Below, piece after piece: positions 5,382-40,224 of a DNA stretch of 64,000 bases; positions within the stretch are counted from its first letter, which is position 1, and each line of letters begins with the position of its first letter. The position numbers and the translations under genes are program-made. Under the pieces are notes generated by a model, which was not told where the DNA came from, did no database searches, and saw nothing but the letters and a program-made list of their open reading frames with translations. The stretch comes from Bacilli bacterium. GTDB lineage: Bacteria > Bacillota_I > Bacilli_A > RFN20 > CAG-826. The stretch is from assembly GCA_045597865.1 (NCBI GenBank), contig JAZLKX010000057.1, positions 22,321-86,320 on the forward strand, given 5' to 3'.

Positions 5382-6757
5382 TGGCTTGGTATGAATGGCT
5401 TTTATCAGCTTTATTATTTATCATTTCGCTCGGCGCCTTAATAACAATTCATGAAGCTGGACACCTTTCAATGGCAAAAGTTTTTAAAGTCTATTGTCAT
5501 GAATTTTCTATTGGTTTTGGTCCTAAACTTTTACGTGTCAGAAAGAAAGGACACGAAACATATTTTGCAGTTAGAGGAATTCCTCTCGGCGGTTATGTTT
5601 CAATGTATGGCGAAGGAGCAGAAGAGCTTCCAGAATTTAAAGATATTCCACAAGAACGTTCCTTAGAAGGCATTAAGAAGTGGAAGAAAGCTATTATTGT
5701 TTCTGCTGGTGTTATTTTGAATGCTATTTTGGCGTTTGTTTTAATTTTGATTTCAAATATGTGTTTTCCAGTAATGGGTCATACAACTCGTACTGTAATC
5801 GCAGAAAATTCTATTGCTGCCACAGTTGGCGTTAAGACAAATGACAGATTGAATTTTATTTATCCATCTGAGTGTTTTAAGGACGAAAGTATTTATCCAA
5901 TTGAATATGATTACACAACAAGCGATAAGCTAATTCACGCTGGCAATTTTTATATTGTTGATAATTCAATTGAGATGATTCCTGAAGCAACACCGGGGGT
6001 AGTTAAGCATTTTTCATTAGTTTTTATGTTTAATGGAAACAAAGATAGTTCCAACTTCTGTGATTGCATTAAACTTCTACCAGCTGTTACAAAAGACGAA
6101 ATTAGAAATAATGAATATTTAATTGGGAATAAGTTCTATGCTTCTTGGATTGAGGAAGAAGGAAGTCCAGAATATTATCCAGACTTTACTGTTTCAACTT
6201 ACACACCTAGCGAGAAAACCACTTTTGTTACTCATTTAAGTTTCCAGGCAGAAGATGAAACTTCTTATTCAAAAGAATTTACGTTATCAACTGTTGCTGA
6301 TGGATCTAAGTACAAGTTTGCTGACATTGGTATTTCTTTCCCAGTAATTAAACAATGGTTACCTGTAGGCGATAGATTTAAACAAACATTTGTGGATTAT
6401 GGAAATGCTGCAAGTGCAGTCTTTAGAGGAATAGGAGTGTTATTTACTGGTGGTATTAAAAATATGTCCGGCATAGTAGGAATTTTTGAAACCAGTGCTA
6501 CCTTATTCTCTAATTATACATTTGCTACCTATTTATATTTCTGGGGTTTAATTTCGGTCAACTTAGCTATCTTTAACTTATTGCCGTTCCCTGGTTTAGA
6601 TGGATGGCAGTTACTTGTTACTGCAATTGAAGGAATTAGCAAAAAGAAAATCCCTAATAAATTTAAACAAATTATGTCATTAATTGGACTTGCATTATTG
6701 TTTGTATTAATGATTGCTATTGTCGTATTAGATATTGTAAGGATTGTGGGGGTATAA
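5381..6757 (+). CDS. rseP: RseP-like M50 intramembrane zinc protease
   Basis: HEAGH zinc motif, EFSIGFGP, IPLGGYV, FNLLPFPGLDG; conserved position after dxr. Confidence 0.93.
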   Translation: MAWYEWLLSALLFIISLGALITIHEAGHLSMAKVFKVYCHEFSIGFGPKLLRVRKKGHETYFAVRGIPLGGYVSMYGEGAEELPEFKDIPQERSLEGIKKWKKAIIVSAGVILNAILAFVLILISNMCFPVMGHTTRTVIAENSIAATVGVKTNDRLNFIYPSECFKDESIYPIEYDYTTSDKLIHAGNFYIVDNSIEMIPEATPGVVKHFSLVFMFNGNKDSSNFCDCIKLLPAVTKDEIRNNEYLIGNKFYASWIEEEGSPEYYPDFTVSTYTPSEKTTFVTHLSFQAEDETSYSKEFTLSTVADGSKYKFADIGISFPVIKQWLPVGDRFKQTFVDYGNAASAVFRGIGVLFTGGIKNMSGIVGIFETSATLFSNYTFATYLYFWGLISVNLAIFNLLPFPGLDGWQLLVTAIEGISKKKIPNKFKQIMSLIGLALLFVLMIAIVVLDIVRIVGV

Positions 6758-6759
6758 AA

Positions 6760-9700
6760 ATGAATGACAAAATGATTAGATTTCTAACTTCAATCAAGCT
6801 CGAAAACCTTGATCGTTTTGATATGGATTTTGATCTTGTTACCCGCAATCAATTTAAGCGCGAGCAAGTCGATATGTTGATTGTGAAAAACACACCTTGG
6901 GATGCAGATCTCCTAGAGGAATTCCAAGATGCCCTCGAAACAATTCAGTACCCATATTCCATGAAATTTTCTTACGTTAAAAAACCAACAAGTTTTGATG
7001 GAGAAAAATTGTTTGAAAATTGGCATTATAGACATAATCACTATAAGAGCGATTTAAAGGTCAAAGCAAACGGATCTGACATTGCTTTCTACTTCGATGA
7101 TGAAGAACAAAAAGAAAAGAATAAATCTGTTGTTAAAGACTTCAAAGAGTTCCTTGACTTTATTGGCTACAAATTAAAAATAGTGGAGATTTTAAGCGAA
7201 AAAACCCCTGAAATCCCGAATATTTCTAAAAATGATGAACCAGTAAAAGTTGAGATTACCAAAGAAGAAGAAAGCGCAATTAATGCTTATAAAACCACAA
7301 TTTCTGAAATGCGTCATGATAAGGAATTGCATGCTAAAGGACAATCTTGGAGAGATAGAATTCCTTATAAGAAAATTGATGATTTTTCAACGATTGATGA
7401 GAACTGTTCAAATGTAGATATTGAAGGTCAATTATATGGCATTGATAAACCAAAAATTATTAAATCTGGATTAACACTTTTGACATGCGGAATTGGTAAA
7501 GGCGACACAGGTATTTCTCTTAAGATTATGGAGAACGAACATGACTCTGCTGAACTCATTGAATCTCTTAAAAACGAGATGTGGGTTAGAGTTCTTGGAT
7601 ACGTCCAGAGAGATACATTTAAAAATACTATTGTTATTGATGTTAGAGCAATTACTCCAATCGAAGGACCTGAACTTAGAAAAGATGAAGAACCTGAGAA
7701 ACGTGTTGAGCTACATTTACATACAAAAATGTCATCAATGGATGGTGTTACAAGCATCGATAACTATATTAAGCTTGCTAAAAACATGGGTCACAAGGCC
7801 TTAGCTTTAACTGACCACGGTGTTGTTCAAGCTTTCCCAACTGCTCAAAATGTAGTTAATGATATTTATAAAAAAGATTGCGATAAAGCAAAAGCAAACA
7901 ATCTTCCTATGCCAGAAAAATTAAAAATTCTTTATGGCTGTGAATTTTATGCGGTTAATGATGAACTTCCATTCGCATTAAATCCTGTGGATGTTCCATT
8001 AAATAAAGCTACATATGTTGTATTCGACTTAGAAACAACCGGTCTTTCAACTAGATACGATTCAATAACCGAGTTTGGTGGTATTCGTTTTGAAAACGGC
8101 CAAATTGTTAAGTCTTTAGACTTACTCATCAATCCTGGAAGACCAATTCCTCAAAAGATTGTTGAAAAAACACACATTACAAACGAAATGGTTGCAGATA
8201 AGCCTCATATTGAGGATGTTATTGATCAAATCCTTGAATTTATGGATGGTGCAATCATCGTTTCACATAACATTACATTCGACTACGGCTTCTTAAAGGA
8301 GGTCATGAAAAAACTTGGTAGGGGAGAATTTATTAAACCTGCTATTGATACACTTTCATTATCTCGTTATATGTTCCCAGATGCTAATGCTCATAGATTA
8401 GGAAACTTATCTAGACACTTAGGCATGGATATTTATAATGATGAAGAAGCTCACCGTGCTGATTACGATGCTCGTATTTTAAATGATGTTTGGCTTGCTA
8501 TGTTAGCTAAGCTAACAAAGAATAACGAAAATCTCAAACATAGTGATTTAGCAAAGATTAAATCTACAAACGCTATGCTTAAGCATATGCGTGCTTCTCA
8601 CGTTACAGCACTTGCTAAAAATGAAGCCGGTGTCAAAGATATGTTTGAATTAGTTTCATTGTCTCACATCAATTACCTTGCAGATGTTCCAAAAACACCA
8701 AAACGTGAAATTGCTAGATTAAGAGAAAATCTATTGCTTGGTTCAGCTTGCTGCAATGGTGATATTTTTGAAATAGAAATGACCAGATCAAAGGAAGAAT
8801 TAATTGAAGCAATGAAATTCTTCGATTTTATCGAAGTTCAACCTCCTGAGAACTATATGCACTTGGTAAATAGAGGTGTAATTGATTCTATTGATAAGGT
8901 TAAAGTCTTTATTACTGATATTGTTGAAACCGCACAATCAATTGGCAAAATTGTTGTCGCAACTGGTGATGTTCACTATGCAAACCCAGAAGACAAGATT
9001 AGCCGTGATATTTATATTTCAGCCAAAGCTGTAGGTGGTAAATACCATCCACTCCGTATGAGAGATCCAAATATTGAAAATCCAAATCAACATTTTAGAA
9101 CTACTCGCGAGATGCTTGATGCGTTTGAGTTCTTAGGCAAAGATAAAGCCTATGAAATTGTTATCAAGAACACGAATCTCATTGCTGATATGTGCGAAGC
9201 TATAGATCCAATTCATGATTTACTTTGTAAACCAGAGATTGAAAATTCGGACAAAATACTTGTTGATTCATGTTTTAGTAAAGCTAGAGAGCTCTTTGGC
9301 GATGATTTACCACAAGATATTGTTGATAGATTAAATAAAGAACTAGATGGTATTAATGGTAATGGTTATTCAGTTACCTATTACATTGCTCATGAGATTA
9401 TTGAAACAGCCGCTAGAGACGGCTATATGGTTGGCTCACGTGGATCTGTCGGATCCTCGCTTGCAGCCCACTTGTATGGCATTACTGAAGTCAACCCATT
9501 AGCACCTCATTATAGATGTCCAAAGTGTAGACATTTTGAGTATTCGCACGACCCGTCTATATACTCAGGCTCAGATTTGCCAGAGAAAAAATGCCCTGTT
9601 TGTGGTGAACCGATGGTCCATGATGGACAAGATATTCCATTTGAAACATTCTTAGGTTTCCATGCTGAAAAAGTTCCAGATATCGACCTTAACTTCCCTT

Positions 9701-11153: not shown

Positions 11154-11229
11154 CGGGGCATAGCACATCTGGTAGTGCGCTAAGTTCGGGACTTAGAGGT
11201 GGTGAGTTCGAGTCTCACTGCTCCGACCA
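11154..11229 (+). tRNA. tRNA-Pro(CGG)
   Basis: Cloverleaf; anticodon arm CTAAG-TTCGGGA-CTTAG; GTTCGAG T-loop; encoded CCA. Confidence 0.93.
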
Positions 11230-11232
11230 TTC

Positions 11233-11309
11233 GCGCCTGTAGCTCAAATGGATAGAGCGTCCCCCTCCTAAGGGGAAGGTTGAACGTTCAACTCGTTTCA
11301 GGCGCGCCA
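11233..11309 (+). tRNA. tRNA-Arg(CCT)
   Basis: GCGCCTG/CAGGCGC acceptor; TCCCC-CTCCTAA-GGGGA; CCA. Confidence 0.93.
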
Positions 11310-11369
11310 ACTGCATCGCATGTTTCTATTGAAAATAGATAGAAATATAGTATTATATAATTCGTTGTT

Positions 11370-11445
11370 GGGCCTGTAGCTCACCTGGGAGAGCGCCTCC
11401 ATGGCATGGAGGAGGTAGCCGGTTCGATCCCGGTCAGGTCCACCA
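11370..11445 (+). tRNA. tRNA-Ala(GGC)
   Basis: G3:U70 pair; CCTCC-ATGGCAT-GGAGG; CCA. Confidence 0.95.
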
Positions 11446-11458
11446 GAACTAAAAAAAT

Positions 11459-11484
11459 ACTTCGACTCGTTCGAAGTTTTTTTA
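11459..11484 (+). terminator. Rho-independent terminator
   Basis: ACTTCGA-CTCGT-TCGAAGT plus T run. Confidence 0.7.
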
Positions 11485-11539
11485 TACAAAAAATGTGAAT
11501 AATTTGTATAATATTTTTAGAAAATCGGAGGCAAAGTTT

Positions 11540-13228
11540 ATGGATAATAAAAAACTTTTTACCAACCATCGTTATTTTTATTTTATAACAGAACTATTTG
11601 TTGGAATTGCTTTGATGGGCATTGAAATGTCTGCATCTAGACTTATTGCAGTTTACTTTTCATCATCTCAAATAGTTTGGACAATCATCATTGGTGTAAT
11701 CATGATTGCAATGGCAATTGGCAATTATTGGGGCGGCCATCAAGCAGATAAAAAACCATCATTAAAACGACTTTATTTTGAGTTATTATTCGCTGGTGCA
11801 TGGATTGTTTTGATCCCATTTGTTGGACCATTTATTATTGGTGGCGTTTCAGTCATTCTCGCTCTTTTTGTGACAAGTAATTTAGTTATTTGGGCATCGT
11901 TATTTTCGTGCCTAATTATCTTTGTTCCTCCTCTATTATTTTTGGGTAAAGTTACACCATCTTTAATCAAGTTTTCTTTGGATCAAAAAGTATCTGGAAA
12001 AGTTATCGGATTACTTGAAGCTTTGAATACAATTGGCTCGATCGTAGGAACCTTCCTTCCAACATTCTTGACCATTCCATTTATAGGTACTTCAAACTCA
12101 TTTGTTTTATTCGGCTCAATGATAGCTGTACTCGGCTTAATTTATGTCGTAACTTTCTATATTGATTATTTTAAAAATCAACCTAAAAAAGAAGTTGCAA
12201 CCAAAGACAAAGAAGAAGAGAAAATAATTAAGAAAAACAGGAAAAATCACGTAAAATCCCTCATATTCTCAGGTATTTTCTCTATTTTATGGATTACTGG
12301 AATGGTGGTTTCAAGTAATGCGTCTCCGATATTTTGGGGTGATAAAACTGTAGTTGTTGAAACGGATTCTATGTATAACTATTTAAAGGTTAGCAAAGAA
12401 GGAAAAAGAACCTCATTTTCCACCAACGTTTTGTTTGGAGTTCAGTCTTGTATTAATGACGATTATTCATTAACAGGAATGTATTATGACACCCTATTAG
12501 TATCGCCTTATTTAGTGAAGGAAAATCCTAAAGTTTTGGTACTCGGAAATGGTACAGGAACTTATGCAACAATGATGAAGGATTTTCTACATTGTGAATG
12601 TGATATTACTGCAGTAGAAATTGACCAGAAAATTATCGACTTATCTTACAAGTATTTTAAGATGAACAAAGACGTTAATGTTATCTGTGATGATGGCAGA
12701 AACTTCATTGCTAGAGACAAAAATACTTATGATATTATTCTTGTTGATGCCTACTCATCAATTTCAGCTCCTTTCCATATGACAACAGTAGAGTTTTTTA
12801 CTCTTGTGAGAGATCATTTATCAAATGATGGAATTATGATGATGAACATTAATATGCGTTCGGCTGCAAAAGGTTCAATTAATGAAGTTCTTTGTGATAC
12901 AGCATATAGTGTTTTTGGAAATTTGTGTTCATGTTCTTCTTCTAGCGGAATGGAAGTCTTTGCATCTAAGAATAATGAAACAAATTTGATTAAAAAAATA
13001 AAAGCTATATCAATTAAAGATGGACAACTTGAATACGTAATTGATAGTTTGAAAAGAAATATTAAACCTCACGTTGATACAGGTTTAAGACTTTATGATG
13101 ATACAGCAGATGTTGAAATGAGAAGTATTCAAACATTAGATGTTATTGTTCAAGAAGAAGTTAATTATTATAAGGATATATATAGAAAAGAAGGCTTAGA
13201 CGGTTTACTTAAAAGATTACTTGGATAA
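11540..13228 (+). CDS. Fused MFS-like membrane domain / spermidine synthase-like SAM-dependent domain
   Basis: N-terminal TM segments (GIEMSASRL, NTIGSIVGTF); C-terminal VLVLGNGTG, AVEIDQ, DDGRNF, YDIILVDAY; start at ATG after GGAGG. Confidence 0.85.
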   Translation: MDNKKLFTNHRYFYFITELFVGIALMGIEMSASRLIAVYFSSSQIVWTIIIGVIMIAMAIGNYWGGHQADKKPSLKRLYFELLFAGAWIVLIPFVGPFIIGGVSVILALFVTSNLVIWASLFSCLIIFVPPLLFLGKVTPSLIKFSLDQKVSGKVIGLLEALNTIGSIVGTFLPTFLTIPFIGTSNSFVLFGSMIAVLGLIYVVTFYIDYFKNQPKKEVATKDKEEEKIIKKNRKNHVKSLIFSGIFSILWITGMVVSSNASPIFWGDKTVVVETDSMYNYLKVSKEGKRTSFSTNVLFGVQSCINDDYSLTGMYYDTLLVSPYLVKENPKVLVLGNGTGTYATMMKDFLHCECDITAVEIDQKIIDLSYKYFKMNKDVNVICDDGRNFIARDKNTYDIILVDAYSSISAPFHMTTVEFFTLVRDHLSNDGIMMMNINMRSAAKGSINEVLCDTAYSVFGNLCSCSSSSGMEVFASKNNETNLIKKIKAISIKDGQLEYVIDSLKRNIKPHVDTGLRLYDDTADVEMRSIQTLDVIVQEEVNYYKDIYRKEGLDGLLKRLLG

Positions 13229-13248
13229 TTAGTAATTTTTACTAATGA

Positions 13249-13273
13249 TAAAACCGCTTACATTTGGTATACT
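13249..13273 (+). promoter_or_regulatory. cre/LacI-like operator next to an extended -10 promoter
   Basis: Reverse complement of 13249-13262 is TGTAAGCGGTTTTA, one mismatch from cre TGWAANCGNTNWCA; TG-G-TATACT at 13265-13273. Confidence 0.5.
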
Positions 13274-13329
13274 TTAATTACTAAAGTGCGAAAGCACATA
13301 AAGGAGGATACCAGTTGGTATAAAAACAT

Positions 13330-14853
13330 ATGGCTTATAATGGATTCGCTATTGATGAGTATTTAGACGCTATTCAAGTAACTAAAGATCTCGATGAATT
13401 AATTAAAAAACCAATTTTCTCTATTAAACCAGATGCTTTAAAGGTTTATGAGGAAGAATACTTCGGTAAGAAGTGTCAAAAATCAAAGGAAATGATTGAT
13501 AAAGCTAAGGATATTATTCCTGGCGGTGTTCAACATAACCTTGCATTTAACTATCCATTCCCAATTGTTATGACTAAAGCTTTAGGCAATAAGTTATACG
13601 ATATTGATGGAAATGAATACTTCGACTTACTTCAAGCTGGCGGACCTACACTTTTAGGTTCAAACGACCCAGTTGTTAGAGAAAAAGTTATCGAATTACT
13701 TAATACATGTGGCCCTTCAACAGGTTTATTCCACGAATATGAATACAAACTTGCAGAACTCATTCACCAATGCGTTCCATCAGTTGAAAAATTCAGAATG
13801 TTAGGTTCTGGAACTGAAGCTTGTATGTGTGCTTTACGTATCGCAAGACTTAAAACAGGACATAAGAACGTATTAAAAATGGGTGGAGCTTACCATGGTT
13901 GGTCAGATCAAATGGCCTATGGCATGAGAGTTCCAGGAACTAAAAACATCAAATCCGGTGGTGTTCCAATGTTCGTCTTTAAACACACAGACGAATTCTT
14001 CCCAGGAGATTTAAAATCACTCAAACGTAAATTAAGAAGAAATAGATTACGTGGTGGTACAGCCGCAGTTTATATTGAACCAATCGGCCCAGAATCAGGT
14101 ACAAGACCAGTTACAAAAGAATTCGTCCAAGGATGTGAAAAGTTAGCACATAAGTATGGCGCATTGCTCGTTTGTGACGAAGTTGTCTCAGGTTTTAGAA
14201 TTGGTGTTGGTGGTGCCCAAGCATACTATGGCATTGATCCAGATTTAACAATTTTTGGTAAGATTGTTGCTGGCGGTTATCCAGGTGCTGGTGGTGTCGG
14301 TGGACATGCTGACTGTATGGCTCATTTAGGCGCAGGACTCGATACAGGTGGTGCCAAAAAGGGCAAAAAGAAAGCTAAAAAGATTAAAAAAGCAATGTGT
14401 GGTGGAACAATGGCTGCTACACCAATCAGCTGTGTTGCCGGTTACTATGCTATTAGCGAAATTATTAAACGTAACGCTTGTGAAGTCGCAGGACGTATGG
14501 GTGATCGTTTAACAAAAGGCTTACAAGAATTAATTAAGAAGTATAACTTACCATTCGTTGCATTTAACATTGGTTCAGTTTGTCACTTAGATACAGTTGG
14601 CACAATGCATTTTTGCATTAACTGGAAGAAGATTTGGACAATTCCTCATGTCTTAAAAGAAACAACCAAGAGACAAAGAGAAATGGAACACATGGGTGCT
14701 GCTTACATGGCAGAAGGTATTGTTACCCTCGCAGGTTCAAGACTTTATACTTCAGCAGCTTATACTGAAGCAGACATTGATGAAGTTTTAAGAAGATTTG
14801 AAAATGTCTTTAAAAACTGTGCTCAACTTGAATTCCCGGATCAAAAGAAATAA
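13330..14853 (+). CDS. Class III PLP aminotransferase (HemL-like fold, substrate unknown)
   Basis: IPGGVQHN, YDIDGNEY, GSGTEA, AYHGW, DEVVSGFR, FGKIVAGGYP (PLP lysine). Confidence 0.88.
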   Translation: MAYNGFAIDEYLDAIQVTKDLDELIKKPIFSIKPDALKVYEEEYFGKKCQKSKEMIDKAKDIIPGGVQHNLAFNYPFPIVMTKALGNKLYDIDGNEYFDLLQAGGPTLLGSNDPVVREKVIELLNTCGPSTGLFHEYEYKLAELIHQCVPSVEKFRMLGSGTEACMCALRIARLKTGHKNVLKMGGAYHGWSDQMAYGMRVPGTKNIKSGGVPMFVFKHTDEFFPGDLKSLKRKLRRNRLRGGTAAVYIEPIGPESGTRPVTKEFVQGCEKLAHKYGALLVCDEVVSGFRIGVGGAQAYYGIDPDLTIFGKIVAGGYPGAGGVGGHADCMAHLGAGLDTGGAKKGKKKAKKIKKAMCGGTMAATPISCVAGYYAISEIIKRNACEVAGRMGDRLTKGLQELIKKYNLPFVAFNIGSVCHLDTVGTMHFCINWKKIWTIPHVLKETTKRQREMEHMGAAYMAEGIVTLAGSRLYTSAAYTEADIDEVLRRFENVFKNCAQLEFPDQKK

Positions 14854-14855
14854 TT

Positions 14856-15635
14856 ATGGCTTACACAATTGAAGAAGCTAAAAGATTAATCATAAAGGCT
14901 GGCCTAGAGCTTTGTGAAAAGAAACTCATTGCCAGAACTTGGGGCAATATCTCAGCTCGTATTTCTGATACAGAGTTTGTAATTACCCCAAGTGGAATCC
15001 CTTATGATAAGGTTAATAATGACAATTTAGTCGTTGTTAAAATTGAAGATTGTTCGTGGAGCGGTGAAGTTAAGCCAAGTGGTGAAAAAAAGGTACATGC
15101 TGCCATTTATAAAGCCCGTCCAGGGGTTAATTTTATTCTCCACACCCATCAAAACTACGCTACAGCTATCTCGGTAGATGGTAAGGATAAGGACTTTGTT
15201 CCAGTTGCCAAGTATGGACTTCCATCAACAAAGAAACTTGTCAAGAATATTGGAAAGGCAGTTGTTGCAAACCCAGATAAAAATGCTGTTTTAATGGCAC
15301 GTCATGGTGCAGTAATTTATTCTGACAACTATGACGATGCTTTTAAGATTGCTTTAGATCTTGAAGAACAATCAAAAGCTTTATTTGATAAGGTTGCTAC
15401 TAAAAAGACTGAAAAGCAGGAAGCAAAACCTTATTTAGATGACTACGCACAAATGTTTGGTCATTCAAGTAAAGCAGTTGAAGAAGATAAAGAAGCTGTT
15501 GAATTAATTAAATTCAAGAACTCTCTAGCTGCTTCATATCAAAGTAAATTAAAACCAATGAAATGTTTAGACGTTACATTACAACATTTTATTTATAAAA
15601 AGAAATACTCAAAATTAGCTAAAAACGCTAAATAG
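14856..15635 (+). CDS. Class II aldolase/adducin family protein (AraD/FucA-like)
   Basis: TWGNISAR, ITPSG, KPSGEKKVH, HTH metal ligands, MARHGA. Confidence 0.88.
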   Translation: MAYTIEEAKRLIIKAGLELCEKKLIARTWGNISARISDTEFVITPSGIPYDKVNNDNLVVVKIEDCSWSGEVKPSGEKKVHAAIYKARPGVNFILHTHQNYATAISVDGKDKDFVPVAKYGLPSTKKLVKNIGKAVVANPDKNAVLMARHGAVIYSDNYDDAFKIALDLEEQSKALFDKVATKKTEKQEAKPYLDDYAQMFGHSSKAVEEDKEAVELIKFKNSLAASYQSKLKPMKCLDVTLQHFIYKKKYSKLAKNAK

Positions 15636-33057: not shown

Positions 33058-34653
33058 ATGAAAAAAGCTAAAAACGCATTTGCGATAATTGGTATTGTAT
33101 TAGCAGTTGTCGCAGCCGCATTACTAATGTTACATCCAGTAATAGACGGATTAAGCGCTGTCATGTTCCCAGACGGGAAACCAGGACTACCATTTGATCA
33201 ATATTTTTCAATGGTAGGTGGCAGAGTCCAGAAACTTTGGGATTTTTCATGGTTTAGTGCATTCAGTCTTGAAGCATTAAAATCAAATTTCCCATTCATT
33301 GTTTGTGTTGTTGGTCTTGTCTTGTTTGTAGCATTCCTTATCATCATGATTTGCAAGAAACACTTTAAAGGATTTGGTTGGTTTGTACCAATGCTTGTTT
33401 TATTCCTTTTATCAATTGTTGTTTCCTCAGTTTACGTTAATCCTGGTGATCCATCATTCTTTAACGAATACAAACCATTAACTGAAGCTGGCGAAGGTTA
33501 TGGTTTAATTCAAGTTTCCGAAAACTTATTCTTAACCCAAATCTTAGTTTATGTTGGATTAGTATGTGCAATTATTGCTGCAGCAATGTTCATAGTTGCA
33601 TTAATTTTCTACATCATTTATGTTTGTGGTGAAGAAAGAGAAGAGGAAGCTGAAGAACCTGCTATTGAACCAAGTCAACCAGTCAGAGCAGCTGCTGAAG
33701 CAGCACCTGCACCAGTTGCCGTTCAATCAGCAATCGTTCCTGCACAAAAACCAGCAGCATCAGCTACAGTCGCAGCCGCACCAGCAGCATCAGCTACAGT
33801 CGCAGCCGCACCAGCTCCTGCAAAAGAAGAAGCTCCAGCCGAAGATAACGCCAAGGTTATTAGACGCATTCTTGTTCATAAGAGTGGTAAAGTTGTCAGA
33901 GTTCTTAATGAACATTACTATGACATTACTACTAACGTATTTGTTGACCAAGGTTACTATGATCCAAATAGACCAGCTGAAACCGAACAACAACATTACG
34001 AAAGACTTATTAATGAAGCAAAAACTGTTTTACAACCAGCACCAGCTCCTGTTGTTGCTCCAGCACCAGCTCCAGCTCCAGTTATCGTTGTAACTCAACC
34101 ACAACCACAAGTTGTTGTTGCACCAGCACCAGCTCCTGTTGTTGCTCCAGCACCAGCACCAGCTCCAGTCGTTGCTCCAGCACCAGCACCAGCTCCTGTT
34201 GTTGCACCAGCTCCAGTTGTTGTTGCTGCACCAGCACCAGCAAAAGAGAAAGTCGAACGTATTCCATTTACTGATCGTATGAAACATGCTGAAAAAGCAT
34301 TAAAATTCGCTTACAACGAAATTAAGAGTGAAATCTTATCATATGGTCTTAAATCACGTGTTTCTATCGCAGGTGATACATTCAGACTTCATACAAAGAC
34401 ATATGTCATGCTTGTTGTTGCAGGTAAGAGCTTAAAACTCTACTTTGCTTTGGATCCAAAGGATTATAAAGATTCCAAGATGCCACTTGGTGATGCATCC
34501 AAGAAAGTCCTCCATAAAGATACACCTCTTGTATTCAAAGTTAAGTCAGACTTATCAGTTCGTAGATGTAAACAACTTATCGCTGATTGTTGTGCTAAAG
34601 ACGGTCTTGAAAAAGGCGAATTTGTCAAACACGATCACGTTAAGGATTTATAA
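33058..34653 (+). CDS. 4-TM membrane protein with Ala/Pro linkers and a C-terminal globular domain (DUF5655-like, tentative)
   Basis: GGAGG RBS; TM region; [10 protein letters not shown] and PAPAPVV repeats; C-terminal [18 protein letters not shown]...[12 protein letters not shown]. Confidence 0.7.
33751..33810 (+). repeat. Exact 30-bp tandem duplication ([10 protein letters not shown] x2)
   Basis: CCAGCAGCATCAGCTACAGTCGCAGCCGCA repeated twice. Confidence 0.95.
34034..34243 (+). repeat. Coding low-complexity repeats (APAPAPVV)n
   Basis: Multiple CCAGCACCAGCTCCWGTYGTTGCW-like units. Confidence 0.9.
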
Positions 34654-34669
34654 TCTTTATTTAAAATTT

Positions 34670-34695
34670 AAAGGTGACCTTCGGGCCACCTTTTT
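34670..34695. terminator. Terminator with TTCG loop between convergent genes
   Basis: AAAGGTGACC-TTCG-GGCCACCTTT. Confidence 0.7.
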
Positions 34696-35230
34696 ATTTA
34701 CTCAATTTTTCTTTGTATAACTTATATATTAAGTCACTTGTTTCTTCAATTGACTTGTTTTCAGTTTTGATTATAAAATCAACTTTTCCAATCTTCTCCA
34801 ATGAGAAGTCATCAACATCATTTTTAAGACGTTTCGCAATATTTTCTTGTTTGTCTCCACGAGAAACCATGCGTTCGTGTCTTGTTTTTTCATCTGCAAT
34901 TAAAAGAAATGAAACTATGTGTTTATTATTTAATTTTAAGAATGAATGAAGACCATTTGGATCAAGCACGACAATTTTATTGTCATCAACTTGATCAATG
35001 CCGCATCCATAGTAATTTTCATTGTATAGTGAATGCTCTACAAATTTTCCTTCATTTAAACGTTTTGTAAATTCTTCTTTGCTAATAAAAAAATATTCAA
35101 CGCCATCAGTTTCGCCGACTCGTTTTTCACGTGTTGTAGTTGTGATTGCTTTAACCAAGCCATGACGTTTTTGTAAATCAAGGGCTGTAACTGTTTTTCC
35201 GCTTGCAGAAGCACCGACTAATAAAATCAT
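34694..35230 (-). CDS. gmk: Guanylate kinase-like protein
   Basis: GASASGKT P-loop, TTTTREKRVGETDGVEYFF, ENYYG. Confidence 0.85.
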   Translation of the reverse strand: MILLVGASASGKTVTALDLQKRHGLVKAITTTTREKRVGETDGVEYFFISKEEFTKRLNEGKFVEHSLYNENYYGCGIDQVDDNKIVVLDPNGLHSFLKLNNKHIVSFLLIADEKTRHERMVSRGDKQENIAKRLKNDVDDFSLEKIGKVDFIIKTENKSIEETSDLIYKLYKEKLSK

Positions 35231-35357: not shown

Positions 35358-35678
35358 ATGCCAAGAAATAGCAAAGACGGTTCATACTACAGATTTAACG
35401 AAATGGAAACTATCGCTAAGGTTTATTTTTTGCGTTCAAAGTATTTTAAAAACAATCTGCAAAAACCAGTTATTGAAACAAACAAAAAAGCTAGAAAGAT
35501 AAATAAAATTACTAAAGCTTTTAGTGCATTGAGTGAACCGTATAAAACAATAATTAGAAACACTTTCTTTGAAAAGAAAGATGAGTTTTGGTGGTCTGAT
35601 TATTATCCTAAAACTACATATTATCGAATGAGAAATCAAGCCATAAAAGCATTTTTGCTAGCGTATAAATTACAATGA
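35358..35678 (+). CDS. Small basic protein, MG284/MPN403-like (ArpU / sigma region 4-like C-terminus)
   Basis: GAGGAG RBS; FWWSDYYPKTTYYRMRNQAIKAFL resembles the ArpU/MG284 C-terminal helix pattern. Confidence 0.6.
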   Translation: MPRNSKDGSYYRFNEMETIAKVYFLRSKYFKNNLQKPVIETNKKARKINKITKAFSALSEPYKTIIRNTFFEKKDEFWWSDYYPKTTYYRMRNQAIKAFLLAYKLQ

Positions 35679-36625
35679 AAAGAAATCTAATATTACTAAT
35701 ATTGTCATCTTTTTTATGCCTTACAAGTACAGGGGCAGGAAAAACTAAAATCGGGATTAGTTCAATTAAAACTATGCCTTTTTATTTAGATGGTTCTACA
35801 ACAGACATAAAAATCTCTGTGACCGCAAGCAAAATTGACCCCGTTATTATAGAAGTTAAAGTAAGCAATGATTTTAATATTGATGGAGTAAGTATTTATA
35901 AAAATGTCTTGAATTCTCTCCAAACAGTAAATATCGAATATGATAATCGATATACAAGACCTGAGGATAATTATTTAATCGTTGATGAAAAGATAGGACC
36001 AAGTGTAAAAACTTATAAACATTATGTTAGTTTAGCCAAATCCTCTTCTATTTCTTTGACTGATCCTGTACATGTTTATAATTCAGTTTCACAAAATTAT
36101 TCATATAAGAGTGGAGTTTGGACTTCTTCTGTTGAAACATTAAAATTTTATAATTTTGAGGATCAATATGTTCCAGATTTCTATCATAAGATAGATCCTA
36201 CGTATTTTTATATTTGTCCAGAAAGGTCTTATGACGAAGACAATTTGATGTTTACTGGCGGTTATTTCACGATAACAAATAAAGATGGTTTATTTAATTC
36301 ATTTAACCACGATTCAGAAATAGCATTTATACCTCTTACATTAGTAAAAAAGGAAAACAGGTATGTTTTAGCCTTTGCAAATAATCTATATGTTAATACA
36401 ACAACTTTAGAAATGAGTTCTAGCTATAAAGTCGGATTTGTTAATACAAGATATTTTTATTTGCCTAGAAACGAGAAAAGATACGAAGACTTTTATGAGT
36501 GCGGAATAGTTTTAAATGGTTTAGGGCAAGATAAATCTAATTTTATTTCTAAATTTAAATATAAGTCATTAAAAAATATATTTGGGGATTGCCGCAATAG
36601 CAAATATTGCATTATCAATAGCTAA
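35675..36625 (+). CDS. Hypothetical secreted beta-rich protein (MG285-like, tentative)
   Basis: Signal peptide MKRNLILLILSSFLCLTSTGA; C-terminal IFGDCRNSKYC Cys pair; overlaps previous stop. Confidence 0.55.
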   Translation: MKRNLILLILSSFLCLTSTGAGKTKIGISSIKTMPFYLDGSTTDIKISVTASKIDPVIIEVKVSNDFNIDGVSIYKNVLNSLQTVNIEYDNRYTRPEDNYLIVDEKIGPSVKTYKHYVSLAKSSSISLTDPVHVYNSVSQNYSYKSGVWTSSVETLKFYNFEDQYVPDFYHKIDPTYFYICPERSYDEDNLMFTGGYFTITNKDGLFNSFNHDSEIAFIPLTLVKKENRYVLAFANNLYVNTTTLEMSSSYKVGFVNTRYFYLPRNEKRYEDFYECGIVLNGLGQDKSNFISKFKYKSLKNIFGDCRNSKYCIINS

Positions 36626-36626
36626 T

Positions 36627-37034
36627 ATGACAAATTGTATCTTCTATTCATTATTTTTTGTTCTTTTCTTAAATTTTTCATTTGGATCTTTAAGAATTTC
36701 ACAAATCAATAGAATTTTTATGTCAATGTACAAGGGATTATTTGAATCGTGCACTGTTACGATTGATCAAAATGGTGAACCGATATTTCCTTATTATAAT
36801 CAAAGTTTATTAGAAGAAACAGCTCAAAGTTATGTTGATGAAAATATCGGAAAATTAACACCGTCTTATACCTTAACAATAAATTTTTATAAAGAAAACG
36901 GCTATTCACATTGTTCAAAAAGAGACTTAGCTAGGTGCGTGAAATTAAAGCTTGAAACTAGAATTAATTATTTATTCTCTTATGAAAAGGAACAGGTTTA
37001 TATGATTCAAGAAGGGGCAATTGATAATGAATAA
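36627..37034 (+). CDS. Single-TM pseudopilin-like protein (MG286-like, tentative)
   Basis: N-terminal hydrophobic helix, ISQINRIF amphipathic helix, internal Cys pair. Confidence 0.55.
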   Translation: MTNCIFYSLFFVLFLNFSFGSLRISQINRIFMSMYKGLFESCTVTIDQNGEPIFPYYNQSLLEETAQSYVDENIGKLTPSYTLTINFYKENGYSHCSKRDLARCVKLKLETRINYLFSYEKEQVYMIQEGAIDNE

Positions 37035-37980
37035 TAAATTAATTGAATACATCGAAAAGTCCTTTTTGAAAGACTTGATCTGCCAAGAAGGAGTAACTGA
37101 CATTTCTTATAACGGAAAGTTTATTTTCTACTTGCACAATACTGAGGGAAGGAAAAAAGCTGATATAAATGTAAGCAGCAACGAAGTTTTAGACTTTCTT
37201 AGGCAAATTGCCAACTATTCAGAGAAACAATTTTCAGTAACAACTCCTCTTTTAGATATTTCAGTAGGAAAATATCGCATTAATGCAGTTCATCCATCAA
37301 TTGTTCGTGTTAAAAACGAAAAAGCATGTTCTTTCGCTATTAGAATAAGTTCAGAGGAATCAAGAATCATAAACGATAATGATTTTATAGATGAAAAATG
37401 TCGTTCTTTTCTTTTTGAAGCAATGAAAAATGAGAAGTCGATAGTCATTGCAGGCCCAACCGGTAGTGGAAAAACTGAATTGCAGAAATTTTTGCTATTA
37501 AACCTCAAAAATTGCACCCGTGTCATAGTTATTGACAATGTTGAGGAGTTGGAAAATGTGCGTTTGAATAATGAAATAGACCTCACAAGTTGGCAAATTT
37601 CTCAAAATAATTTAAATGCCTCAATTCAAGAACTTGTCCGTAATGCGTTAAGAAGTAATCCTGATTGGATTGTTATAGCTGAATCTCGAGGAAAAGAGAT
37701 GAATGAAGTATTAAATAGTGTAATGACTGGTCATCCAATAATTACAACTTTGCATGCAGAAGCAATAGAAGACATACCTTTACGTATTTGTAGAATGGTA
37801 GAAATGGCTGACGTGACTCAAAAGCACGAAAGCATTCTAAATGATATTTATGAACACATAAAAGTATGTGTTTTTCTAAATAGAAAAATTGATTCAGATA
37901 CAGGTGTAAAACGATATGTTGAAGCAATCGGTGAATTACAAAAAGACAAAACAATGAAAATTATTTATAGGAGGAAATGA
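37027..37980 (+). CDS. CpaF/TadA/VirB11-family secretion ATPase
   Basis: VTDISYNG, RINAVH, Walker A GPTGSGKT, IDNVEEL, ALRSNPDWIVIAESRG, TGHPIITTLHA. Confidence 0.92.
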   Translation: MNNKLIEYIEKSFLKDLICQEGVTDISYNGKFIFYLHNTEGRKKADINVSSNEVLDFLRQIANYSEKQFSVTTPLLDISVGKYRINAVHPSIVRVKNEKACSFAIRISSEESRIINDNDFIDEKCRSFLFEAMKNEKSIVIAGPTGSGKTELQKFLLLNLKNCTRVIVIDNVEELENVRLNNEIDLTSWQISQNNLNASIQELVRNALRSNPDWIVIAESRGKEMNEVLNSVMTGHPIITTLHAEAIEDIPLRICRMVEMADVTQKHESILNDIYEHIKVCVFLNRKIDSDTGVKRYVEAIGELQKDKTMKIIYRRK

Positions 37981-37981
37981 C

Positions 37982-38686
37982 ATGAAAGGAATCACAATAG
38001 GTTTTTTAATTTTGTCTATAGTTGTAGGGATTATGTGCTATCTTACAACATCAAATTTATATTTTGCATTAGGTATATTTTTGATTTTTATTCTTTATTT
38101 CTTCTTGTTTCAATACAAAAAATTTAAAAAATATTTTTCGATAGTTAGAAGAGTACATTCTTGCTATTTTTTTGTTAATTCCTTTATAGTTTCGATGTCA
38201 GTAAAGGAATCGTATGAGGAAGCCTATAACAGCGGTATCAGAATTAACGATTCAAAGTTGCAATTTTATTGTAATGAGTTAAATGATTTATCTGATTATG
38301 AAAAAGTTAAATATTTGCGAAATTATTTTAAATTAGCAATATACAAAATGTTTTTAAATATTTTAGAAATTTATCAAGAACAAGGCGGTAATATTTTAAC
38401 AATGAGTGACAATCTAATTCGTGAATGTACAAGGACCGAAAAAACGCTTATTGAATCATATAATTTAGGGATCAAACATATCATTGAATTTATCATACTT
38501 TGGGCACTATCTTTTGGTGTACTTTTGTTCCTCAAATTTGGTATCGGAGACTTTTATGATAAGATGCTTCAAAACCCTATATTTCCACCCTTAATTTTAG
38601 TGTTCTTTTTTATCTTTTTAATTTCAATTCACTTGTTCTTTAAAACGTTTACAAATTTAACAATTAAGGAGGATATTATTGAATGA
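37982..38686 (+). CDS. TadB-like platform protein (T2SS F domain)
   Basis: 2 TM - soluble domain (FVNSFIVSMS...YQEQGGNI) - 2 TM; directly after the ATPase. Confidence 0.7.
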   Translation: MKGITIGFLILSIVVGIMCYLTTSNLYFALGIFLIFILYFFLFQYKKFKKYFSIVRRVHSCYFFVNSFIVSMSVKESYEEAYNSGIRINDSKLQFYCNELNDLSDYEKVKYLRNYFKLAIYKMFLNILEIYQEQGGNILTMSDNLIRECTRTEKTLIESYNLGIKHIIEFIILWALSFGVLLFLKFGIGDFYDKMLQNPIFPPLILVFFFIFLISIHLFFKTFTNLTIKEDIIE

Positions 38687-39351
38687 AAAAAATACTCGCT
38701 CAAATAGAAAGACTTGGCCTTTCTGCCAAAAAAGAATTTGCAATTTTAACAGTTGTAGATTTGATTTTGTTTGCTTGTTCAATTGTTGCTGGAATATATG
38801 GGAAAAACAGTCTATTTTTCATATTTGGTCCAGGATTTGCAGTGATTTTTTCAATTTTATACTTAAGCCGATATGGTAATTTGATCAATAAAATTAATAA
38901 CAATAACTTACTTGAATTTTCTGAACTTTTTGGTTTCTTCAAGATATATATTAAAAATGGTTACAACGTATACAATGCATTAAAAGAAATCTCATATTTT
39001 GCTAATGACAATTTAAAAGAATTATTGCAAATTTTATTGAATGAAATTGACGAAGACAAATCGGTTCAACCATTTATTAATTTTTCGAAAAATTTTGATG
39101 AAATAATTGTTGAAGAATTAATGATTTCAATATACCAAATGATTGATGAAGGAGAGCAGTCAAATTATCTTGTTCAATTTGAGTTTATTTTTGACAAATT
39201 TTCTGATTCATTATTGCAAAAAGAATTAAAGAAAAAAGACTCGAAATTAGGAACGCTTTCAAGTGCTCCTCTTATTGGCTCATCTTTCCTAATTGTGGTC
39301 ATTACAATAGGCATTATTGGATTAATCGGAGATATTACGAATGGGATATAA
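38683..39351 (+). CDS. TadC-like platform protein (T2SS F domain)
   Basis: 2 TM; FFKIYIKNGYNVYNAL motif; C-terminal TM. Confidence 0.72.
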   Translation: MKKILAQIERLGLSAKKEFAILTVVDLILFACSIVAGIYGKNSLFFIFGPGFAVIFSILYLSRYGNLINKINNNNLLEFSELFGFFKIYIKNGYNVYNALKEISYFANDNLKELLQILLNEIDEDKSVQPFINFSKNFDEIIVEELMISIYQMIDEGEQSNYLVQFEFIFDKFSDSLLQKELKKKDSKLGTLSSAPLIGSSFLIVVITIGIIGLIGDITNGI

Positions 39352-39682
39352 ATTAGGTTTTATTTTGTCATTATTTTTAGTAGTTGAATTGTTCATCTTG
39401 GCAGGAGATTTATTTACTGCCCAGGTGATTTATACCAATCTAGATGCTGTGAGTATAACAGCTGGCAACATCATTTCTTCAAAGGGAGGTATAACAGATG
39501 AAGTTAGAACATTTGTTTTGAACAATACCGGAGGCGAAATAACTGCTGTTGGAGACGAAACTCCTTTATTTGGATCTATTTATGTTTTTAAAATTTCCAA
39601 AACCTATCAACCTATGAATTTCTTTACAGACGAATCGGAAATTTCGGTTGTACGCAGCGTCGTCATTGGCTATTACAATTAG
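39341..39682 (+). CDS. TadE-like pseudopilin (tentative)
   Basis: N-terminal TM KLGFILSLFLVVELFILAGD, then LDAVSITAG helix and short beta region. Confidence 0.55.
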   Translation: MGYKLGFILSLFLVVELFILAGDLFTAQVIYTNLDAVSITAGNIISSKGGITDEVRTFVLNNTGGEITAVGDETPLFGSIYVFKISKTYQPMNFFTDESEISVVRSVVIGYYN

Positions 39683-39695
39683 AAAGGAGAAAAGT

Positions 39696-39896
39696 ATGTC
39701 TGAAGTTAAAGGCACTTTATTAACCATTATTCTTGTATTAGCAGTATTTGCAACAGTTTTTACAGCAGTCACACTTGCTTTTCAAAGAAAAGCATCTGAT
39801 GTAGCTACTAAAATTGAAAATGCTGGAGAAACAGCGGCACCAGCTGCTGCACCAGCTGCTGCAGCAGGAGTAAATGTATTGACTTATCATTATTAA
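39696..39896 (+). CDS. Flp-like major pilin candidate (66 aa)
   Basis: Strong AAAGGAG RBS; MSEVKG then hydrophobic helix, amphipathic helix and Ala/Pro tail; last gene before terminator. Confidence 0.6.
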   Translation: MSEVKGTLLTIILVLAVFATVFTAVTLAFQRKASDVATKIENAGETAAPAAAPAAAAGVNVLTYHY

Positions 39897-39907
39897 TCAA
39901 TGCAATC

Positions 39908-39930
39908 AAGGGAGGCCTAGCCTCCTTTTT
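39908..39930 (+). terminator. Terminator of Tad-like operon
   Basis: GGAGGC-CTA-GCCTCC plus T run. Confidence 0.8.
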
Positions 39931-39999
39931 CTTATATAATATAAAATTCTTTATTTTTATATTCTATGTGATACAATAATCACACATTGAGGTAAATTT

Positions 40000-40224
40000 A
40001 TGGATAAACTTGCTGAAATTAAAGAACGTCTTGCTAAAGCTGCTCACAAAGACAGCATTGACGATTCTATGAAATTAAGAGAGCTTGGTATTGATTCTCT
40101 TGACATTGTTGAACTTCTTTTACAACTCGAAGAGGATTATGGAATCCACTTTAATGACATGGATATGTCAAACCTTGTTACAGTAAAAGATTTACTCGAT
40201 GTAATAGCAAAACAATTAAAATAA
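40000..40224 (+). CDS. acpP: Acyl carrier protein
   Basis: LGIDSLDIVEL phosphopantetheine site; LEEDYGI; TVKDL. Confidence 0.92.
   Translation: MDKLAEIKERLAKAAHKDSIDDSMKLRELGIDSLDIVELLLQLEEDYGIHFNDMDMSNLVTVKDLLDVIAKQLK

Follow-up and report, generated by a model that had tools for sequence, protein, structure and literature searches.

Among the systems closest to the locus analysed here are the Tad/Flp pilus (tight adherence, type IVc, with monoderm versions), whose prepilins carry the processing signature G/XXXXEY, and the cluster MG284-MG285-MG286 of Mycoplasma genitalium, which is followed by an acyl carrier protein (ACP) gene. The three cluster genes are conserved, function-unknown genes of near-minimal pathogen genomes, and descent from a pilus-type machine, if demonstrated, would give them a concrete role. 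The passages of PMC6105099 on sigma-20 describe MG_285 and MG_286 as members of its small regulon, involved in recombination and gene transfer in M. genitalium, with a sigma-20 start site upstream of MG_285; overexpression of sigma-20 raises MG_285 16-fold and MG_286 18-fold, together with recA and ruvAB, and permits DNase-resistant marker exchange. Our literature search for these locus tags retrieved this source alone as dealing with them, and no pilus link is drawn in those passages. Here, we analysed a 64,000-nucleotide stretch from a Bacilli bacterium (contig JAZLKX010000057.1; "the window" refers to this whole stretch), in which a homolog of MG284 heads a region, 35358-39896, that is very probably a chromosomal operon whose eight genes encode a reduced, Tad/Flp-like version of a type IV filament machine, and we weigh the proposal that the mycoplasma cluster is what remained of such an operon after the loss of its motor genes.

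The features of the locus are the following (sizes in amino acids, aa; families, genomes and loci carry our own labels f, G and L, f1 being the family of the window):

34694..35230, - strand: guanylate-kinase-like gene (PF00625, E 8.9e-21), divergent
35358..35678, + strand: P1, small protein of the MG284/MPN403 family (NF045770), 106 aa, putative DNA-binding regulator
35675..36625, + strand: P2, secreted, 316 aa, with an N-terminal hydrophobic signal, an N-terminal half that varies and a C-terminal beta-sandwich that is conserved and predicted to be immunoglobulin-like (Ig-like)
36627..37034, + strand: P3, 135 aa, N-terminal membrane helix and outer domain of ~110 aa, possibly DUF5411-like
37021..37980, + strand: secretion ATPase of the TadA/CpaF-VirB11-archaeal type, 319 aa (PF00437)
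37982..38686, + strand: TadB-like platform protein, 234 aa, with helices at its ends and a soluble middle; paralog of the next gene
38683..39351, + strand: TadC-like platform protein, 222 aa (sub-threshold PF00482; homology to family f15)
39341..39682, + strand: P7, pseudopilin-like, 113 aa, with a conserved N-terminal 'MSYK.G.ILS' helix
39696..39896, + strand: P8, candidate Flp-like major pilin, 66 aa, short leader 'MSEVKG' followed by a hydrophobic helix
39908..39937, + strand: intrinsic-terminator-like hairpin and T-run, with a 9-pair stem, 5 G-C pairs and a T-rich tail
40000..40224, + strand: ACP, 74 aa (PF00550), conserved downstream flank

Our own open reading frame (ORF) calls place nine + strand genes at 35358-40224, where the original prediction had located them. 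Together with the family scans, they confirm the order that it had given: a small basic protein, a 316-aa secreted protein, a protein with a single transmembrane segment, the ATPase/platform/pilin block and acpP. The region 35358-39896 is a single compact operon of eight genes that overlap (P1 and P2 by 4 bases, 35675-35678) or lie 1-13 bases apart, and the terminator-like hairpin forms its end, separating P8 from the ACP gene. The latter scores 46 bits with PF00550 (cut-off 20.8) and 47 bits with TIGR00517, under the cut-off of 70. An opposite-strand gene of 177-194 aa, located 5' of P1 in most f1 loci, represents the conserved upstream flank. Membrane helices were taken from a simple hydropathy window and no dedicated predictor, and the start of P3 was set by comparison with its relatives, which all begin with a conserved 'M(I/T)N'.

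The interpretation of this operon as Tad-like is drawn from the family matches of its ATPase, the paralogous platform genes, the conserved pilin-type N-termini, the gene overlaps and the terminator, as well as from the conservation of the full set in family f1, the related operons of family f15 with the same order, and the match of P3 to DUF5411. The ATPase is of the TadA/CpaF secretion type: it scores 78.6 bits with PF00437 (cut-off 24.9), and its nearest PDB chains are archaeal GspE (1.5e-16), VirB11 (1.2e-15) and CpaF (3e-11), with FlaI also among them. It is the only T2SSE-family gene of the genome. The two genes 3' of it are paralogs, as shown by jackhmmer cross-matches, and both encode polytopic proteins whose soluble middle is flanked by helices. 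In addition, the protein encoded at 38683-39351 is homologous (E 1e-10) to the product of the gene that follows the ATPase in the RcpC-bearing Tad-like operons of family f15. That the locus would instead be a VirB11-type secretion or conjugation module with no pilus machine appears highly improbable. Among the NCBIfam models, the ATPase indeed scores best with VirB11 (TIGR02788, 127 bits), ahead of TadA (TIGR03819, 118 bits), a model itself described as conjugal transfer-associated, but both scores fall far under the cut-offs of 250 and 373 bits. Moreover, no VirB4, coupling protein or relaxase is found among the eight operon proteins, to which the search for VirB4 was limited, the position of the operon on the chromosome is fixed in 41 of the 42 genomes of the family, and the pilin-type N-termini are conserved.

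Among the latter, the N-terminus of P8, 'MSE(I/V/L)KG QLLG..', is kept in 22 loci and looks like a prepilin-type leader, with a cleavage-type region that reads 'KG/TLLTI' in the window and 'KG/QLLG' in its relatives. P8 is not a Flp-type prepilin in the strict sense, as no Flp family matches it at E<=0.1 and its 'MSEVKG TLLTI' carries neither Glu nor Tyr at +5/+6; its match to DUF6112 (E 1.3e-4) is below the cut-off. No Pfam or NCBIfam family corresponds to P7, the platform proteins match no solved structure, and neither TadZ/CpaE nor RcpC/CpaB was detected among the eight operon proteins in the Pfam and NCBIfam scans (E<=0.1). Two further observations count against a Tad-like machine. First, the T2SSF domain expected of platform proteins was recovered only below threshold, in 5 of the 38 proteins scanned (E 0.0021-0.087; for the protein at 38683-39351, PF00482 at E 0.087 over positions 8-123 of 125). 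Second, no A24 prepilin peptidase (PF01478) was found in the genome, which is 96.9% complete, and it was found in only 2 of 46 f1 genomes, one of them above the cut-off, in a search whose control was positive in 12 of 14 known genomes. The pilus-type operon is near-universal in this family, yet the peptidase was found in these two genomes only. Whatever its relation to the mycoplasmas, the operon is a widespread pilus-like system of uncultured gut Bacilli, as judged from the 701 clusters of the P2 family, and it has no recognisable prepilin peptidase, which raises the question of how its pilins mature.

The distribution of the operon was explored from its first gene. Of 400 genomes sampled from the phylum, 190 have a match to the NF045770 model, all of them within 11 of the 30 families, and 91 loci around these MG284-family matches were fetched and their ORFs called by us. 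In family f1, the full set from P1 to P8 followed by ACP is present in 18 of 19 fetched loci, in addition to the window. In five more f1 loci, in which the model missed P1, P2 to P7 and ACP are present (ACP on the opposite strand in L149), along with P8 in four of the five. The ATPase is encoded in 41 of 42 f1 genomes and in all three f3 genomes, and proteins 48-82% identical to it occur in public contigs from 'Bacilli bacterium', 'uncultured Mollicutes bacterium' and 'Candidatus Enteromonas sp.', the last assigned by its authors, in the classification given in PMC8035907, to the GTDB order RFN20, family CAG-826. The operon also exists in motor-less form. In family f2, of the same order as the window, four loci (L062, L064, L065 and L066) retain P1, P2 (E 1e-37), a fused platform-like gene and P7, with a small anchored protein also in L066, and the ATPase is found in none of six genomes. 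Within f1, genome G113 lacks the ATPase and P8 but has kept P1, P2 and a gene resembling P3, along with two platform-like genes, P7 and ACP. Family f2 and G113 are motor-less intermediates, in which the ATPase was lost while P2, P3 and platform genes were retained.

The surroundings of P1 are different in other families. In f9 (e.g., L098, 2830-5144), the P1 homolog is followed by a stand-alone ACP and then by PtsI (TIGR01417, E 5e-221). In f13, we considered the gene before P1 as a possible fabG; it has no NCBIfam match, and its neighbor is a radical SAM protein (TIGR04100), not a fatty-acid operon.

P1 itself provides a connection to the mycoplasmas. It matches the 'MG284/MPN403 family' model NF045770 with 68.9 bits (E 2.6e-19), well above the curated cut-off of 37.3, a whole-genome search agrees, and it bears the motif WW..YY..TTYYR; the homology of the 35358 protein to MG284 that had been suspected is thus established. 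As to its nature, neither a Pfam scan of 36 family members nor a search of PDB sequences with its profile yielded a consistent result; a weak match to ArpU (TIGR01637, E 0.0019, below the cut-off) makes it a putative regulator of the operon. The gene order of M. genitalium given in the original prediction is correct: locus L031 (genome G125, a single contig of 580,076 bases, translated with table 4, TGA=W) contains proS (TIGR00408, E 5e-205), a 132-aa NF045770 protein, a 347-aa protein of the Pfam family DUF5443 (PF17518), a 196-aa protein of DUF5452 (PF17533) with an N-terminal hydrophobic helix, and an ACP of 84 aa. The 347-aa protein is 99% identical to a database protein annotated as DUF5443 family protein of Mycoplasmoides genitalium. 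The idea that P1 could be a sigma-20 paralog was dropped, its profile scoring only 0.2% against the 171-aa Sigma70_r4_2-bearing ORF of G125.

This arrangement is general in the Mycoplasmatales, as the synteny check suggested by the original prediction shows. In families f14, f7 and f12, proS and P1 come first, then a protein of 346-463 aa that lacks inner helices (slot 2), a protein of 134-199 aa with one N-terminal helix (slot 3) and ACP, the pair criteria defined below holding in 9 of 11, 12 of 20 and 3 of 5 fetched loci, respectively. In f23, where the comparison covered the genes from P1 onwards, the order P1, slot 2, slot 3 is alike and ACP lies further downstream. Since the layout is common to these four families, MG284-X-Y-acp is ancestral to Mycoplasmatales. 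Searches of 112 sampled Mycoplasmatales genomes yielded no homolog of the ATPase at E<=1e-15 (0/89, 0/13, 0/9 and 0/1). One mycoplasma genus has two P1 copies (L111/L112 in G313; L113/L114 in G144). One copy is located behind proS without the pair, and the second (L112, L113) is found elsewhere, away from proS and acp, accompanied by a 405-446-aa protein and an anchored protein of 134-149 aa. As the second copy travels with the two genes, P1 and the pair behave as a unit. Some slot-2 genes appear interrupted. In L127 (G279, 11200-15400), the gene is split into pieces of 184 and 116 aa, and two near-identical 130-aa ORFs, each after an ORF of 182-221 aa, flank the area and look like insertion sequences. 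In L033 (G084, 6725-7815), the MG285-type gene is read as two ORFs of 144 and 242 aa (table 4), possibly due to a frameshift or to an assembly difference.

In order to evaluate how unusual the two genes after P1 are, we described the pair as a gene of 280-470 aa that has no inner helix, followed by one of 110-210 aa with a single N-terminal helix. This pattern was found in 55 of 1,025 adjacent same-strand pairs in all fetched loci, 51 of which are the P1-downstream pairs themselves. Elsewhere, it is limited to 4 of 974 pairs, two of the four lying in other Tad-like loci; taken separately, the two genes have marginal frequencies of 19.4% and 5.1%, the product of which is 1.0%. The link between the operon and the mycoplasma cluster is drawn from the homology of P1 above the curated cut-off, the ACP flank on both sides, this rare pair pattern and the motor-less forms, and the joint movement of P1 and the pair in one mycoplasma genus was counted in its favor. 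In our view, a common origin of the P1-P2-P3 and MG284-285-286 modules is somewhat favored and, given such an origin, the change was quite probably one of loss in the mycoplasmas.

Several observations weigh against this interpretation and lend themselves to an explanation by independent filling. According to it, P1 was ancestrally next to ACP, the gut lineage inserted a Tad-like block, the ancestor of the Mycoplasmatales inserted two unrelated genes, and the likeness of the two is due to chance. P1 and ACP are directly adjacent in eight fetched loci of f9 and f13, so that the gap may have been filled twice, and they are also adjacent in one mycoplasma-type genome (L128). The genes after P1 vary in other lineages, such as PtsI in f9. 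The slot-2 proteins of three mycoplasma families (f14, f7 and f12) have no signal peptide, which is present in f23, whereas P2 always has a signal-like N-terminus. Furthermore, the rarity of the pair pattern is somewhat overstated, as its criteria were chosen after the data had been seen, and neither sequence nor specific fold similarity supports the pairing, as detailed below. Nevertheless, an independent filling must account for a pattern observed in only 4 of 974 other pairs, with a marginal product of 1.0%, and for the existence of motor-less intermediates, and the missing similarity is uninformative because the mycoplasma families also mismatch each other. We therefore consider it a possible but rather unlikely explanation.

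The profile and structure searches that the original prediction had called for, comparing the 35675 and 36627 proteins with MG285 and MG286, recovered no kinship, and their outcome also counts against a common descent. In BLASTP, P2 reached E 0.19 with MG285 of G125 and P3 E 6.3 with MG286, and searches of P1, P2 and P3 against the G125 proteins retrieved nothing besides the P1 motif. In local jackhmmer searches started from P2, P3, MG285 and MG286 (7,668 ORFs, 92 loci), the two sides never met. In hhalign comparisons, P2 scored 0.0-1.2% with the slot-2 groups (0.6% and 1.2% with the DUF5443 group) and P3 0.6-3.0% with the slot-3 groups (0.6% with the DUF5452 group); this was unchanged after deepening the profiles to 173 sequences for P2 (with 146 relatives) and 50 for P3 (with 26 relatives), and a merged profile of all Mycoplasmatales slot-2 proteins performed worse against P2 (0.15%). 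Similarly, an hmmsearch with P2 over 8,048 local ORFs did not raise the slot-2 proteins above noise, the top matches outside the family being N-terminal helices of small proteins. In the Pfam scan (E<=0.1), P2 did not match DUF5443 and P3 did not match DUF5452. At the sequence level, the DUF5443 test lowers the possibility that P2 is a member of that family, not that P2 and MG285 share an ancestor.

For P2, no Pfam or NCBIfam family was found (Pfam E<=0.1). A search of 1.84 billion representatives gives its own family 701 clusters (50% identity; E<=1e-3), of which the best 150 were covered here, and P2 proteins of f1 and f3, both in the order of the window, are only ~15% identical. Its AlphaFold2 (AF2) model, from a 24-sequence alignment, has a mean predicted local distance difference test (pLDDT) score of 65.6, with a confident C-terminal sandwich (150-316) and an unresolved region at 27-145. 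Foldseek found nothing for it in the PDB at E<=1e-3, and an ESM Atlas search gave no usable match. The AF2 model of MG285 (27 sequences; mean pLDDT 61.9) displays beta domains at 33-135 and 190-316. The models appear alike in overall build, with two beta-rich halves and a C-terminal sandwich, a likeness counted in favor of the link to the mycoplasmas, but this is a common build, and a wide fold search with both models retrieved generic beta-sandwich folds only and nothing specific. The C-terminal block 'N.Y.YD ... G..IP.N..G' is kept in all slot-2 proteins of Mycoplasmatales, and P2 has 'YVNP..TL.MS...FYLP.N'; hhalign places the 'YD...G..IP.N' of the MG285 group on the P2 block, with P 0.042 for f14 and in a greedy alignment for f7, neither of which is significant.

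How much this lack of similarity means can be judged from the mycoplasmas themselves. Syntenic slot-2 proteins of different mycoplasma families score only 0.1-4.6% with each other in hhalign, and the slot-3 pairs mostly fail too, with the exception of f14 against f7 (88.8%). As these families mostly fail to match one another, the lack of similarity cannot decide on descent. The original prediction had taken such an absence as its own refutation; given the scores among syntenic mycoplasma proteins, the absence is a weak argument. The view that the mycoplasma orphans are remnants of a pilus-like system thus retains the support of the motor-less relatives and of the rare pair pattern, and it lacks significant similarity between P2 and MG285 and between P3 and MG286. 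In our judgement, MG284-MG285-MG286-(acp) is the positional counterpart of the operon, and the odds that it is its remnant, after loss of the ATPase, platform and pilins, are about even.

The polarity of the change could also be reversed, the three-gene module (P1, a beta-rich protein and a small anchored protein) being ancestral and unrelated to pili, and the ATPase-platform-pilin block being a later insertion in the gut lineage. P1 and the two genes do move as a unit (L112 and L113), and the module occurs without a motor in f2, in G113 and in all Mycoplasmatales searched. However, Tad-like operons that are not located next to P1 or ACP (in f15, f24, f11, f13 and f9) also carry a secreted protein and an anchored protein of 120-138 aa just before the ATPase. 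In f15 operons, which contain RcpC/CpaB (PF16976, E 6.6e-8), the anchored protein is DUF5411 (E 7.3e-54), and the DUF5411 profile scores 88.6% with the anchored analogs of f9 type. P3 has no Pfam or NCBIfam match, but it resembles DUF5411 (PF17424) in hhalign over ~90 columns outside the helix (31-37%, P 3.6e-4 to 5e-4; 7.6%, P 0.0046 with the deeper P3 profile), and is possibly DUF5411-like on this basis. The order of secreted and anchored proteins in these unlinked Tad-like operons, together with the likeness of P3 to DUF5411, suggests that P3 and, by position, P2 are true parts of the machine. Therefore, we regard the reversed polarity as improbable and favor loss in the mycoplasmas. Independently of this question, DUF5411 (L143, 6795-7211; L134, 10028-10429) is fixed in the RcpC-bearing Tad-like operons, just 5' of CpaB and the ATPase, and is highly conserved, with 2,638 proteins at E<=1e-3; these operons provide the family with a functional context.

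A possible working of the system can be proposed. P1 would control the operon, and the single ATPase would power the TadB/TadC-like platform, which would in turn polymerise the 66-aa pilin P8. P7 and P3 may be minor membrane-anchored subunits or assembly parts, and the secreted, Ig-like P2 could be a surface part associated with the filament, while the terminator would set the operon apart from the ACP gene. Regarding the function of the filament, the genome has a DprA gene and a ComEC gene, the latter with ComEA next to it. As it has no second T2SSE ATPase, and thus no ComGA, the filament of this operon is the only candidate partner for DNA uptake. Of five mycoplasma genomes checked for ComEC domains, four have them, G125 among these. 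Transformation dependent on Tad/Flp pili is reported for Micrococcus luteus (Flp) and Liberibacter (PMC4322843, PMC8513845). The operon could then be the DNA-uptake (competence) filament of its lineage, with MG285 and MG286 as surviving surface and membrane parts that work with ComEC in sigma-20 DNA exchange, a suggestion that we hold to be speculative and on the whole unlikely; if true, they would be the first candidate envelope components of mycoplasma gene transfer. Adhesion is an equally ordinary alternative function. The published sigma-20 promoter consensus has no exact match in L031 and one match at chance level in the window, outside the operon.

Two observations concern the surroundings of the operon rather than the operon itself. 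A membrane protein of 531 aa encoded at 33058-34653 contains long repeats rich in Ala and Pro (APAPAPVV...), has a basic domain at its C-terminus and matches no Pfam family at E<=0.1. The assembly of the window (G000) measures 1.74 Mb with an estimated contamination of 5.43%, and three genomes of the same genus measure 1.1-1.2 Mb; some of its contigs are possibly foreign.

In comparison with the Tad/Flp pilus, the operon is headed by an MG284-family gene, holds the unnamed P2 and P3, and has neither TadZ/CpaE nor RcpC/CpaB in the locus nor an A24 peptidase in the genome; its pilin departs from the 'G/XXXXEY' signature and its platform proteins match T2SSF only below threshold. The core is nevertheless the same: a single ATPase of the TadA/CpaF clade serves the whole system, two putative platform proteins that are paralogous and polytopic come after it, and the pilin that follows is very small, has a short leader and is accompanied by small pseudopilin-like proteins anchored at the N-terminus. 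A third comparison is offered by the f15 operons (L134 and L143), DUF5411-bearing Tad-like operons of other uncultured gut Bacilli. They are not located next to an MG284-family gene or ACP, and differ in their RcpC/CpaB, a secreted protein of 844-905 aa, a pilin leader of the form 'MKEA.G' and a TadZ-like gene downstream, but they share the order of a secreted protein, an anchored protein of ~135 aa, the ATPase, two platform genes, a small pilin and pseudopilins, and their ATPases are 29-34% identical to that of the window.

In contrast, the mycoplasma cluster MG284-285-286-acp (MPN403-405) is devoid of ATPase, platform and pilin genes in the 112 sampled Mycoplasmatales genomes, most of its slot-2 proteins have no signal peptide, and P2 and P3 are not significantly similar to MG285 (DUF5443) and MG286 (DUF5452). 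In M. genitalium, MG285 and MG286 are driven by sigma-20 (PMC6105099). What the cluster and the operon have in common is a homologous first gene, the ACP flank, and, between them, a beta-rich protein of ~320-460 aa followed by an N-anchored protein of ~135-200 aa.

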